Shown: positions 53,742-62,410 of the stretch, piece by piece
Position numbering within the stretch: position 1 is the first letter of the stretch
How the letters are laid out: every line of letters begins with the position of its first letter
NCBI RefSeq assembly: GCF_000317125.1
Contig: NC_019695.1
Span: 358,336-422,335 of the forward strand
DNA length: 64,000 bases
Reading direction: 5' to 3'
From: Chroococcidiopsis thermalis PCC 7203
Lineage (GTDB): Bacteria; Cyanobacteriota; Cyanobacteriia; Cyanobacteriales; Chroococcidiopsidaceae
Translations under genes and position numbers: made by a program
The notes under the pieces: generated by a model
Seen by the model: only the letters and a program-made list of their open reading frames with translations
Databases searched by the model: none
Told to the model about the DNA's origin: nothing

Positions 53742-56700
53742 CCATGCGCAAGGTTCAATTTTACAGTGTGCTAGGGACTCTAAAGCTTGAAGAGAAAGCG
53801 ATCGCAATCCATCTATATTCCGGTAAGTTCGAGCTGGCAGCTTTTGTCTGCACCTTCATCTTATGTATTCTCGGCTATTGGACGCAGCCAGCCCAAGCTG
53901 AAGGTAGTAAAGAACTCAACTCTAGTAGTGGCAAGAGAGCTTATACTGAGTGGGATACCGTACAAACAACAGCTGGGATTGCTCGGAAAAGCACGCTCAA
54001 AGTTTACGTGAATGCTGGAGAAAAGATTAATCTTGGCTCTAGTGTCTACAACAGTGCTGGAGGAGGGACTCAAGATATTGTCTACCGCAGTCCTAATGGA
54101 GGACAGGATGGTTCTTGTGATGTCCTCCAAACGGGCTTCGGCTTGATTGATACAACCACTAAAGAAGCTAACGGACCATTTCCTAGTGCAGGCGGATATA
54201 CTCCTTGCCAAATTACTGCAACTGAAACTGGAATCTACGAAGTAGAATTTCATGCTCCACTTTCAGATGGAACTGGTCAAAACCCGCTCATGATTGCTAC
54301 AACCACTGCCTTTGCCACAGATGCAACTCAAAGAGCAACAGTAGCAGCTTGGGACATTACTGTAACTAATAGTTCCGCTCAAGCTATTCCTGGTCGGGTA
54401 TTTGCGAATTACCTAGCTCTCAACATAGGTAATAATACGAATGACTCGATAGGAGCTTTGAGTTCTGCTGTATTTGTCAAAACCGCAGATGGTTATTTAT
54501 ACAGAATAGATTTCAACGGCTTAGATCCCTTTGGATTTATCATGCTATCCAATCCACAAGGGTTTACTTCAGGAGGAAATCGACTCTACAAATCCGTTCA
54601 ACTTGGGAGTGGTGATAGTTTACCGAGTGGAGGCGCGATCGATAGCTCCGTAGCAGGGACTAATAAAATATTTTTTAATCCTCCAAGCATGGACTTACCA
54701 GCTACGGCTTCGCTACCTAGCGGTGGTTCGACATGGCTCCAGTCTTTAGTCGCTCCTCCTCCTGCTGCACCGACTAACTTTGAGTTCGTCGGCAAAGAAG
54801 CAAACACTCCTGGTAAAGCAGGTACATTTCCTTTGGGTGGTTATTTCAAATTTAATGTGGCTCAAGCAGGACGTTACCGAATTTTTCTAGACTTCAACGG
54901 TAATGGTACTTTTGATAGCAACGATCGCATCTTATCTGGAATTTCCACAGTTGGGACTAATTCTGTGGAATGGGACGGTAAGGATGGATTGGGTGTGGCT
55001 CTCAGACCCGATGCGACTGGATATCGTGCTAGTATTGCGGTCACGGTTGATGTTGGTGAAGTCCACTTTCCCTTTATTGACGCTGAGAACAACCCCAGAG
55101 GCATCATCGTAACGCGACAGAATTGTACTCTCAGCGAGCCATTAGCCGGGTGTACGATTGTCTACTACAACGATACTGGATTAATTGGAGGAACTGTACC
55201 CAATCCTATTGCTGCTAAGGGTGGAATTGACAGCAGTACAGGCGCTCATGCTTTTAGTAGCTCTTTTGGCGATCACAAAGGAATCGATACCTGGACGAGC
55301 GTTCCATCTACCTCTGACTCTATAGAATCTGGTGGCATCGTTCTCCGAGAAGCTGACCTGCAAGTGACGAAAACACATAGTTTTTCCAATGTTGTTGGTA
55401 GCCAAATTACTTACACAGTCACCGTAACTAACAAAGGTCCCAGCGATACAAGCGATATTGTCGTTACTGACAATATTCCTGGCACTGTTACTAATGTCAC
55501 TTGGACTTGTGCAATTACTAATGATGTTGCTGGTAGTCTCGCTAATGCTTGTGGTGCAGCCAATGGTTCGGGGAACAACCTCAATACCACATTAACGCTT
55601 AATAAAGATGCAGTTGCCACTTTTACTATTACGGGTACTGTTCCTAGTTTTGCAGACTTGTCGAATTCAGTTACTGCTAAAACTCCACTAGATGTGACAG
55701 ATCCGAATACAACCGCTAACGATTCTCACACTAACACTGTTACCGATACCTTTATATTTGGTACTCCTCCTACTGTAACTAAAACTGACGTGCTTGCTAT
55801 TGATGGCGATCGTTCTGGTGGTACAACTCCTTTAGCAAACCAAGCTGTTACCCCAGGGGATACTTTAGAGTACAGGATTACTGTGACCAACCCTAGCACA
55901 AATACAGCAATTAGCAACGTCATACTGACCGATACCATTCCTACCAATACGACTTATGTTTCTGGTACTTTAAGAGTTGCTGCGGGAGCTAATACCGGAA
56001 ACAAAACTAATAGTCTAGATACCGATCAAGCAGAAATCATTAACAACAATACTAATGTTATCTTTCGTCTGGGAACAGGAGCAAACGGCACATTAGGGGG
56101 AAGTTTGACTGCTGGGCAAAGCACTACAGTCACATTTCGCGTTCGGGTTAACAATCCTTTTCCGAATGGTGTGTCTCAAGTGTCTAATCAAGCATTTGTT
56201 GCTAGCGACAAATTTCCGAGTCTTAAAAGTAACGATCCTGATACTTCTACAGCAGACGATCTGACTGTTACTCGTATAGCAGCACGGCTACGCTTAGTTA
56301 AACGAATTACAGCCATTAATACCACAAATTTTACTAATGTTGTCGATCCTACTACAACTAGCGATTTAAATGACAATAGTAATGTGAGATGGTTGTCTAA
56401 CTATTTACAAGGCAAAGTCTTTGATACTACGCAACCTGGAGACGAAATTGAATATACAATCTACTTTATTTCGGATGGAGCGAATTCAGCAAATAATACA
56501 GCTTTGTGCGATCGCATTCCTACGAACACCAGTTTTATTTCTAATACCTTTAATAGTGGTTACACTGCTAATAGTTTAGGTTTATCAGGAACAGATAGAG
56601 GTATTCTCTGGCAATACAGCGGCACGACTCAATCGTTAACAAATCTCAGTGATGGAGATGCCGCAACCTATTTTCCCCCAGGAGTTGAGCCGAGTAACGT

Positions 56701-56776
56701 TTATCCCAATATTAATTGTCAGGGCAGTAATACCAATGGGGCGATCGTGGTTAATTTAGGTAGTTTACCCAATCTT

Positions 56777-61400: not shown

Positions 61401-62410
61401 ACAGTGGCGATCTCGATACGGGTGCAAATGGTCTATTTAACTTTCCGATTTTAGAGAGCGCTCAGCTTTCAGGTGGTAACCTAGTCGTTAAAGGCTTTGC
61501 TCGCCCTGGCTCGAAAATAGAATTTTTTGTCAAACAACCCGACCCCTCAGGTTTTGGTGAAGGACAAGAATATCTCGTGACGTTGGTTGAAGATTCGGCA
61601 GACGATGCCGATGCGACAACTGGCACTTATACTAGTCCGTTCAATGGTCTCAACCAAGGTACTGACACCACAAACCGATTTGAATTTTCGATCCCGTTAG
61701 GCAGTCTGCCGAATACAGTCACAACCGCTGACACGCTCACTGCTACTGCTACCTGTCTCAACAGCGAAAACTGCACTAGCGCCCCAAATGGCAGTACTTC
61801 AGAATTCAGCGGTAATATTACCATTACTGGCAGCCCTCATCTATCACTCGTCAAGCGCATTACTGCCATCAATGGCGTTCCTTTTTCTGGGTTTGATGGT
61901 ACTGCTACTGACCCGAATAATAATGGCGATCTCGATGAAGATGTGAACTGGGGTTTACCGCTGGATGACTCCTTGAGAGGACAGATCGATGGCGGTTTTG
62001 TCCAACCGGGAGAAGAAGTCGAATACACGATTTACTATCTCTCTACTGGTGCGACTACAGCTCAAAATGTGTTGTTTTGCGATCGCGTTCCCGCAAATAT
62101 GAGTTTTCTTGCTACTGGGTTCGATAGCTATCCCGTGCAAGCATCTGGAGGTTTACAAGGAGTAGCACGGGGGATTCTCTGGCAATATAACGGGACGACT
62201 GAATCGTTAACAAATGTCAGCGATGGAGATACGGCAATGTATTTTCCCCCAGGAGTTGAGCCGAGTAGTGTTTATCCTAGTGTTAATTGTCAGGGTAGCA
62301 ATACCACTGGGGCGATCGTGGTTAATTTAGGCGATTTAATCAATGCGACTGCGCCTGGAATTCCTGCAAATGCCTATGGATTTGTGCGGTTTAAAGCTAA
62401 GCTCAACTAA
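58478..62410 (+). CDS. Giant secreted adhesin-like protein: DUF11 module, parallel beta-helix repeats, conserved C-terminal domain shared with the 53744 gene
   Basis: Signal peptide; T/N/G-rich sequence. DUF11-like core ([48 protein letters not shown]). PbH1-like repeats ([37 protein letters not shown]...). C-terminal ~190 aa closely similar to the C-terminus of the IS-disrupted paralog. Confidence 0.65.
   Translation: [1310 protein letters not shown]

Follow-up and report, generated by a model that had tools for sequence, protein, structure and literature searches.

Two giant genes and the domain they share

A stretch of 64,000 nucleotides from the cyanobacterium Chroococcidiopsis thermalis PCC 7203 (contig NC_019695.1, positions 358,336 to 422,335 of the forward strand; hereafter the window, in whose own numbering positions are given) carries two genes for giant adhesin-like proteins, giants A and B. 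Both proteins end in the same module, which we call the C-terminal domain (CTD). An earlier interpretation made from the letters of this DNA (the sequence-only reading) had claimed that the two giants share a conserved C-terminal module of about 190 residues behind much more divergent bodies. The features of immediate concern are these:

53744..56818, + strand: giant A as it stands, open reading frame (ORF) from the ORF list
53744..56281, + strand: body of giant A, with an extended signal peptide, a head of ~500 residues, and DUF11 and DUF7927 domains
56282..56773, + strand: CTD of giant A, first 164 residues, to VVNLGSLPN, after which the insertion sequence begins (BLASTP; CTD profile)
56774..57981, + strand: IS701/IS4-like insertion sequence (IS), 1208 bp, with 16-bp imperfect inverted repeats
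56850..57980, + strand: transposase ORF of the IS (DDE_Tnp_1 at 1.5e-10)
57986..58051, + strand: CTD of giant A, last 21 residues, ATGAGTPINSYGFIRFRAKVQ, and stop codon, displaced by the IS
58478..62410, + strand: giant B, ORF of 1310 aa from the ORF list, matching AFY85924
58478..61831, + strand: body of giant B, with a signal peptide, DUF11, an SdrD_B-like domain, a right-handed beta-helix and an immunoglobulin (Ig)-like domain
61832..62410, + strand: CTD of giant B, 192 residues and stop codon (BLASTP; CTD profile; AlphaFold2 (AF2) model)

An alignment of the two C termini, which the sequence-only reading had called for, bears its claim out. When giant A, reconstructed as described below, was compared with giant B by BLASTP, residues 832-1030 of the former aligned with residues 1103-1309 of the latter at 53% identity over 210 columns (E 1e-58), and the sole other real match between the two proteins was a single DUF11 domain at 31%. 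This pattern places the likeness far beyond chance, confines it to the CTD and is not that of a uniform whole-gene duplication, as the same reading had maintained. The CTD starts at residue 847 of giant A (window 56282, near the start at 56276 that had been proposed) and at residue 1119 of giant B (window 61832), so that it makes up the last 185 and the last 192 residues, respectively; all four of the conserved sequence blocks quoted for it are present in the giants. A search of the six-frame translations with the CTD profile found exactly two copies in the window. The head of giant A is without a Pfam match, and heads of its type reappear as cargo in ~20 other loci at 30-42% identity.

The CTD of giant A is interrupted. 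The IS, the only copy in the window, is bounded by the inverted repeats CTTAGATCTTGCACCA and TGCTGCAAGATCTGAG and flanked by a CAAT target duplication (56770-56773 and 57982-57985); its transposase matches the IS701 and IS4 models of NCBIfam below their curated cutoffs. The element cuts the gene 21 codons before its stop, and the tail YGFIRFRAKVQ is encoded beyond it, at 57986-58051. Consistently, the CTD profile matches giant A in two pieces, at 56282-56776 (202 bits) and, for the displaced tail, at 57968-58048. Removal of the IS in silico restores the frame and yields a protein of 1031 aa, whose junction LGSLPNATGAGTP is the same in the uninterrupted homologue P0002. As judged from the sequence, giant A of PCC 7203 lacks the conserved terminal strand and is probably inactivated. 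The tail that the sequence-only reading quoted for giant A is indeed present, but the interruption of the domain had gone unmentioned.

Family, fold and distribution of the CTD

To which family does the CTD belong? When the isolated domain was scanned at E<=10, Pfam gave DUF11 and DUF7619 (sub-threshold) and NCBIfam gave TIGR01451 only. The latter model scores 26.8 bits in giant B and 32.7 bits in giant A, above its cutoff of 24, and covers CTD residues ~54-97. No model of a sorting domain in Pfam or NCBIfam matched at the same threshold, be it for the CTD of the type IX secretion system (T9SS), PEP-CTERM, LPXTG or others; Por_Secre_tail (PF18962, TIGR04183) and CHU_C were among the models that gave nothing at E<=10. 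The statement that the module matches nothing that could be named thus holds for sorting-domain models, but not for the DUF11 superfamily, for which TIGR01451 lies above cutoff. In addition, the CTD profile repeatedly matches the cores of giant multi-DUF11 proteins. A 2025 survey renamed DUF11 'CLIPPER' and described it as a CnaA-like domain with an intramolecular isopeptide triad of Lys, Asp and Asn, the bond being absent from some DUF11 domains (PMC12617251). The families DUF7925, DUF7927 and DUF7619, which occur elsewhere in the gene cluster discussed below, were created in that survey (PMC12617251). No description of the terminal subfamily or of the cluster was found in Pfam (2025), NCBIfam (June 2026) or the literature searched.

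The AF2 model of the CTD, built from an alignment of 18 sequences, is a nine-strand sandwich (pLDDT 85.6, pTM 0.85) in which ~45 residues inserted behind the first strand are poorly ordered, and its predicted fold is that of a CnaA-like Ig beta-sandwich. Foldseek and sequence searches of the Protein Data Bank returned nothing significant for the CTD, and sequence searches of solved structures with the CTD profile and with the barrel protein introduced below returned nothing either. The tail forms an amphipathic beta-strand, SYGFVRFRGKVK, and contains no hydrophobic helix, unlike signals of the PEP-CTERM or LPXTG type.

Conservation was counted in 137 copies and is given in CTD positions. The first-strand residues K8, R9 and T11, the aspartate of the DUF11 'D-x-x-P' motif (D84), C83 and, in the last strand, F187 are each present in 100% of copies, and C153 in 93%. 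At position 165, the candidate isopeptide partner, N is found in 81%, D in 7% and K or R in 8%. Both faces of the first and of the last strand are conserved, and along the terminal strand, which runs out at the free carboxyl group of the protein, basic residues form a conserved row. Read from sequence and model, C83 and C153 are a probable disulfide pair, and K8, D84 and N165 are the candidate residues of a Lys-Asn isopeptide triad.

How general is the terminal position? The search for carriers of the domain that the sequence-only reading had suggested was run with the CTD profile against 1.84 billion representatives and gave 8313 matches, 1084 of them at E<1e-30. These are of two kinds: giant multi-DUF11 proteins that match the profile core only, and do so many times each, and proteins of ~270-2000 aa that match the full length of the profile a single time, at the C terminus. 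All 135 full-length matches among the proteins fetched are single-copy; in 121 the match reaches the final residue, and in 131 it stops no more than one residue short of it. The consensus tail is SYGFVRFRGKVK-COOH, i.e. S-Y-G-F-V-R-F-R-G-(R/K)-V-K-COOH. The bodies in front of it can hardly be aligned (mean column identity 13% among 43 representatives) and contain DUF11, SdrD_B, DUF7619, GEVED, CarboxypepD_reg, SpaA, VWA, CshA_NR2, LTD, beta-helix and other adhesin-type domains; some are without any other DUF11 domain. The idea of a conserved terminal module on otherwise variable proteins is thereby upheld well beyond the two giants, and its cargo turns out to be very diverse and of adhesin type. 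All carriers that bear an organism name are cyanobacterial. With one genome scanned per species, at least 544 genomic stretches were confirmed to encode a CTD, which is also present in more than 100 representative clusters at 50% identity, under database names such as 'DUF11 domain-containing' or 'uncharacterized repeat protein (TIGR01451 family)'.

Most CTD proteins start with a signal peptide, often of 40-60 residues; in giant A, the extended signal region comprises residues 1-53 (window 53744-53902). These long regions resemble the extended signal peptide regions of autotransporters. A box of the form M(K/Q)S(L/F)F(K/R)N(L/F)(K/R)AI recurs before the hydrophobic core in many of the carriers, P0051, P0056, P0062, P0063, P0088 and P0115 among them.

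The CTD can be compared with DUF11/CLIPPER itself (PF01345, TIGR01451; structure 9IFR; PMC12617251). It shares with that family the core P-G-x-x-V-E-Y-T-I ... D-x-x-P, the CnaA-like Ig sandwich, a Lys and an Asp at isopeptide triad positions, and occurrence in Sec-exported, adhesin-like surface proteins. Whereas DUF11 domains are tandem and internal, however, the CTD is single and always last. It measures ~190 aa as against ~110 and has additional loops as well as 45 residues inserted behind strand A. The K-R-I-T of its first strand is invariant, its terminal strand is basic and conserved, and two of its cysteines are conserved too; it is tied to one gene cluster and, by the named sequences, to cyanobacteria. 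On balance, the CTD, a CnaA-like Ig sandwich of ~185-215 residues, is best read as a specialised member of the DUF11/CLIPPER superfamily that always stands at the end of its protein.

The barrel gene cluster and the exchange of its cargo

The genes for the giants follow a series of co-directional genes, which are conserved with them:

44365..47055, + strand: conserved cluster protein of 896 aa, DUF7925 domain (1.7e-52), tail FKFQRLVK-COOH, matching AFY85918
47171..47758, + strand: conserved cluster protein of 195 aa, signal peptide and one DUF11-type domain, tail YQVKVK-COOH
48016..49578, + strand: conserved cluster protein of 520 aa, DUF11 and SdrD_B-like domains
49575..53741, + strand: giant outer-membrane beta-barrel protein of 1388 aa, the proposed partner of the CTD, matching AFY85921

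AFY85918, AFY85921 and AFY85924 are exact or near-exact matches of the 896-aa protein, the 1388-aa barrel protein and giant B, respectively. DUF7925 is a CnaA-like family for which isopeptide bonds are predicted (PMC12617251). The barrel protein consists of a signal peptide, short N-terminal repeats, two Ig-like domains and ~39 predicted long strands. Its database label is TonB-dependent receptor, yet neither a plug domain nor a qualifying TonB_dep_Rec profile match was found in it; nor does it match DUF560, and the usher (PF00577) and PapD-like chaperone models match no cluster protein. The start of the barrel gene is overlapped by the 520-aa gene, which is apparently translationally coupled to it, and giant A begins 2 nt after the barrel stop.

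Loci were compared by tblastn with the window's proteins in the 77 best of the at least 544 stretches, all from cyanobacteria or metagenome-assembled genomes. The order DUF7925 protein, 195-aa protein, 520-aa protein, barrel and then one to at least five CTD genes, all in one direction, is kept across Nostocales, Chroococcidiopsidales, Leptolyngbyaceae and Chamaesiphon. A barrel gene lies upstream of the CTD gene on the same strand in 49 of the 53 loci with enough upstream sequence; of the other four, two leave too little room to judge and two are true orphans. Across loci, barrels measure 1200-1400 aa, and the median best-match identity to the window's proteins is ~64% for the barrel, ~56% for the 520-aa protein (found in 29-31 loci), ~49% for the CTD and ~46% for the 195-aa protein, as against ~33% over part of the length, or no match at all, for the cargo bodies. 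The most divergent CTD, that of P0023, is encoded on a contig that begins at the CTD gene. The sequence-only reading had advised looking for a dedicated sorting enzyme, and this expectation failed: after clustering of all ORFs, no peptidase, sortase or chaperone was conserved within 10 kb in the 77 loci, the rest of the genome not being searched. What co-occurs with the CTD instead is the barrel gene.

Three families of the cluster end alike. The pattern aromatic-(Q/R)-x-(K/Q/R)-V-(K/R/N)-COOH is kept across genera in the 896-aa family, as R(T/N)F(T/S)FQR(K/R)V(N/K)-COOH, in the 195-aa family, as (T/S)YQ(V/T)(Q/K)V(R/K)-COOH, and in the CTD family, as YGF(V/I)RFRG(K/R)VK-COOH (window 47029-47055, 47732-47758 and 62381-62410; orthologues in L002-L076); the 520-aa family ends otherwise, in RMNFAVTP and a short basic tail. 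These related tails could reflect a shared recognition strand or a shared ancestry of terminal DUF11-type domains. They do not make the 896-aa protein a carrier of the CTD, as had been supposed when its end was called a looser version of the module: the CTD profile finds nothing in its C-terminal 170 residues, a profile-profile comparison of its orthologues with the CTD (hhalign) gave a probability of 14.7% only, and only the short tail pattern is common to both. The 195-aa family, in turn, matches the CTD only across the 48 columns of the DUF11 core.

Two further short patterns were noticed at N termini. Residues ~36-140 of the barrel protein (window 49680-50000) contain three motifs of the form (E/D)FG(T/N)(Y/D)VA(A)LPI(E/A), which alternate with xxVALLxxP-like motifs and precede a linker rich in Ser, Pro and Gln. 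A similar mature N-terminal strand, I-x-N-(Q/K)-A-(T/S)-x-x-(Y/F), is found in the 896-aa and 520-aa proteins (window 44470-44500 and 48160-48190) and also in P0072, P0083 and P0086.

The place of the CTD may be taken by another domain. In 24 loci, a protein of ~750 aa with a beta-helix/Ig part and a C-terminal OmpA domain is encoded directly 3' of the barrel gene (e.g. L007 4499-6733 and L015 3728-6043), and its start codon often overlaps the barrel's stop codon; the gene is absent from the window. Its beta-helix/Ig part is 31% identical to residues 837-1021 of giant B. Since the OmpA domain thus occupies the position of giant B's CTD on a homologous beta-helix protein, OmpA domain and CTD suggest themselves as alternative C-terminal anchoring modules. 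The arrangement is like that of the OmpA anchors of Gram-negative fibrillar adhesins, in these 24 related clusters at the very position of the CTD, although the OmpA fold is unrelated to that of the CTD and OmpA domains bind peptidoglycan.

Cargo genes are exchanged between close strains. DNA of Chroococcidiopsis sp. FACHB-1243 is 95% identical to the window from the 3' end of the 896-aa gene to 53516, near the 3' end of the barrel gene, and 92% identical from 61985, which lies 51 codons into the CTD of giant B, to the window's end. Between these breakpoints, the window holds 8.5 kb with giant A, the IS and the body of giant B, and FACHB-1243 holds 3.5 kb (L001 6692-10217) with one unrelated cargo gene of 1241 aa. 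A cargo cassette has thus been swapped, with one breakpoint within the CTD. Being conserved, the barrel gene and the CTD therefore provide two homology arms for a replaceable cassette, of which the CTD is the downstream one.

In 19 loci (e.g. L003 6618-7202), a conserved ORF of 195 aa with the HUH-like motif VIMPNHVHGIV separates the first CTD gene from the barrel gene or the OmpA gene; it has no Pfam match at E<=0.001. It resembles the REP-associated or IS200-like tyrosine transposases and might relate to the mobility of the cassettes.

Proposed role of the CTD and rival explanations

How might the CTD serve such different proteins? Its position, conservation and synteny suggest a role in secretion or anchoring. 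We envision a scenario whereby the passengers would cross the inner membrane via Sec, by means of their N-terminal and often extended signal peptides, and the CTD would then act as a common handle by which a machine encoded upstream, conceivably composed of the giant beta-barrel and the conserved 896-, 195- and 520-aa DUF11-type proteins, recognises and retains very different adhesin-like passengers. Finally, at the cell-proximal end of the adhesin, the CTD would take part in both export and anchoring: once folded, it might act as a stopper that blocks the barrel from the periplasm, or else it might dock on the barrel from the surface side. That the CTD is a system-specific handle, which delivers Sec-exported passengers to the barrel machine and holds them there, has in our estimate an even chance of being right. 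Within this scenario, a permanent anchor is favoured over a disposable tag, because the CTD is large and a covalent lock within it is probable, because the OmpA peptidoglycan anchor stands in its place on a beta-helix protein that is homologous, and because no processing enzyme is conserved nearby.

Several observations weigh against the handle. The loci L048 and L065 hold CTD genes and no barrel gene within 10 kb, no gene of the cluster looks like a protease, sortase or chaperone that would point to processing, and the synteny could mirror a functional link of the whole proteins and not of the CTD itself. As for the family assignment and the covalent lock, the Pfam DUF11 model (PF01345) scores 16.3 bits in giant B and 22.3 bits in giant A, under its cutoff of 24.6, and the candidate isopeptide Asn is absent in ~12% of CTDs.

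A bolder version, which we advance tentatively, is that the cluster represents an undescribed, cyanobacteria-specific system of outer-membrane export and display whose substrates are defined solely by the CLIPPER-derived CTD. With a barrel and three DUF11-type proteins as its components, such a system would be an independent counterpart of the logic of the T9SS CTD and of Slam, with a CTD that doubles as a recombination handle. By descent, the CTD is best placed in DUF11/CLIPPER, on profile evidence that is mixed (TIGR01451 above its cutoff, Pfam DUF11 below) and on a fold that agrees; by its logic, it resembles the CTD of the T9SS, the cargo domains of Slam and the pilin domain of chaperone-usher systems, and it lacks the sequences or components that define each of these three. 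In the Slam or type 11 secretion system, likewise, a dedicated barrel gene is followed by cargo genes that share only their C-terminal domain. The cargo of Slam ends in a small beta-barrel, however, and is often lipidated, whereas the CTD is a sandwich without a lipobox, and the barrel protein has no DUF560 match.

Alternatively, the CTD might be a structural foot or stalk domain, conserved for stability and devoid of a targeting function, on proteins that leave the cell by general export, the barrel cluster being merely co-regulated. Domains of the DUF11/CLIPPER type commonly build the stalks of fibrillar adhesins (PMC12617251), the core of the CTD is that of an ordinary DUF11, and orphan CTD genes exist away from any barrel. 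We nevertheless consider this explanation unlikely. The DUF11 domains of stalks vary and occur in tandem inside the protein, whereas the CTD is always the last domain, in one copy that reaches to within a residue of the C terminus; conservation extends to both faces of its first and of its last strand; it is far better conserved than the bodies and also stands behind bodies without any other DUF11 domain; and its synteny with the barrel is near-universal.

A second alternative, to our minds rather improbable, is assembly of a pilus, with an usher-like barrel, the DUF11-type proteins as fibre or base and the CTD as the pilin domain of tip adhesins. The gene order is reminiscent of chaperone-usher operons, in which structural genes, outer-membrane protein and adhesins succeed one another; pilin domains are the closest folds to the CTD; the cargo domains SdrD_B, SpaA, Cna_B and VWA mirror Gram-positive pilins and tip adhesins; and a related terminal strand is common to three cluster families. 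The tip adhesins FimH and PapG in particular combine a variable N-terminal binding part, a lectin domain, with a conserved C-terminal Ig-like domain and are encoded downstream of the platform gene. Their C-terminal domain engages the outer-membrane assembly platform. Yet the cluster is without usher or chaperone homology: no usher or PapD-like chaperone model matches, and the barrel's matches to ushers are no better than those to unrelated barrels. It also encodes no sortase-like protein or transpeptidase, and the CTD is predicted to be a complete nine-strand sandwich, not one strand short and thus not awaiting a donor strand. The cyanobacterial tubular (CT) pili of Microcystis, which have a different gene cluster and a 12-kDa pilin (PMC12397347), were considered and are unrelated.

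Finally, the CTD might be a cleaved signal as in the T9SS of Bacteroidota, recognised by a barrel translocon and then removed by an unlinked sortase-like peptidase, which attaches the cargo to a surface glycan or lipid. Here too, an Ig-like sandwich stands at the extreme C terminus of Sec-dependent and highly diverse cargo, and the barrel is very large, with its ~39 predicted strands. We hold this explanation to be very unlikely, since the cyanobacterial CTD is twice the size of its T9SS namesake, with ~190 aa and no sequence match; no PorU-like sortase or other T9SS gene is seen in the cluster; no peptidase is conserved within 10 kb in the 77 loci; and none of the models tested shows a sequence relationship to the partner barrel. 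A disulfide together with a probable isopeptide lock would also suit a permanent, load-bearing part better than a disposable tag.

The notion that recent duplication or gene conversion accounts for the likeness of giants A and B, to which their being adjacent paralogues and a within-locus CTD pair elsewhere at 96% identity lend some colour, is refuted by a CTD identity of merely 53% between the two, by a median identity within arrays (42%) that is not above that between genomes (52%), and by the spread of the CTD over cyanobacterial orders behind unrelated bodies. Because identity within an array is not higher, the conservation of the CTD reflects selection on the domain.

The delivery of large Sec-exported adhesins to the cyanobacterial surface is poorly understood, and the usual Gram-negative routes gave no match here or were not found beside the CTD genes. 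A single domain now marks a large and diverse set of candidate surface proteins, and a single barrel gene marks a candidate machine. If the coupling of the two is true, a new sorting signal is defined; cassette exchange would then explain strain-level variation of adhesins, with a bearing on mats, biofilms, symbiosis and interactions with phages and grazers, and biotechnology with cyanobacteria would gain, in the CTD, a tag for displaying proteins at the surface. Should the coupling not exist, what stays is a clean definition of a subfamily within the recently characterised CLIPPER domains.

Two features of the surrounding DNA may be added. The minus-strand genes at 35157-43608 encode two glycosyltransferases (GT2 and GT4), an HlyD-like membrane-fusion protein, a tetratricopeptide repeat (TPR) protein and a PMT_2-type glycosyltransferase; they were rejected as members of the cluster, with which they show no synteny in other genomes. 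On the 3' side of giant B, a simple-sequence tract at 63314-63600 reads as RW/RH or as poly-Gly, depending on the frame; the region around it has its homologue in a Ser/Thr kinase-WD40 gene of FACHB-1243 (L001 10790-12478).

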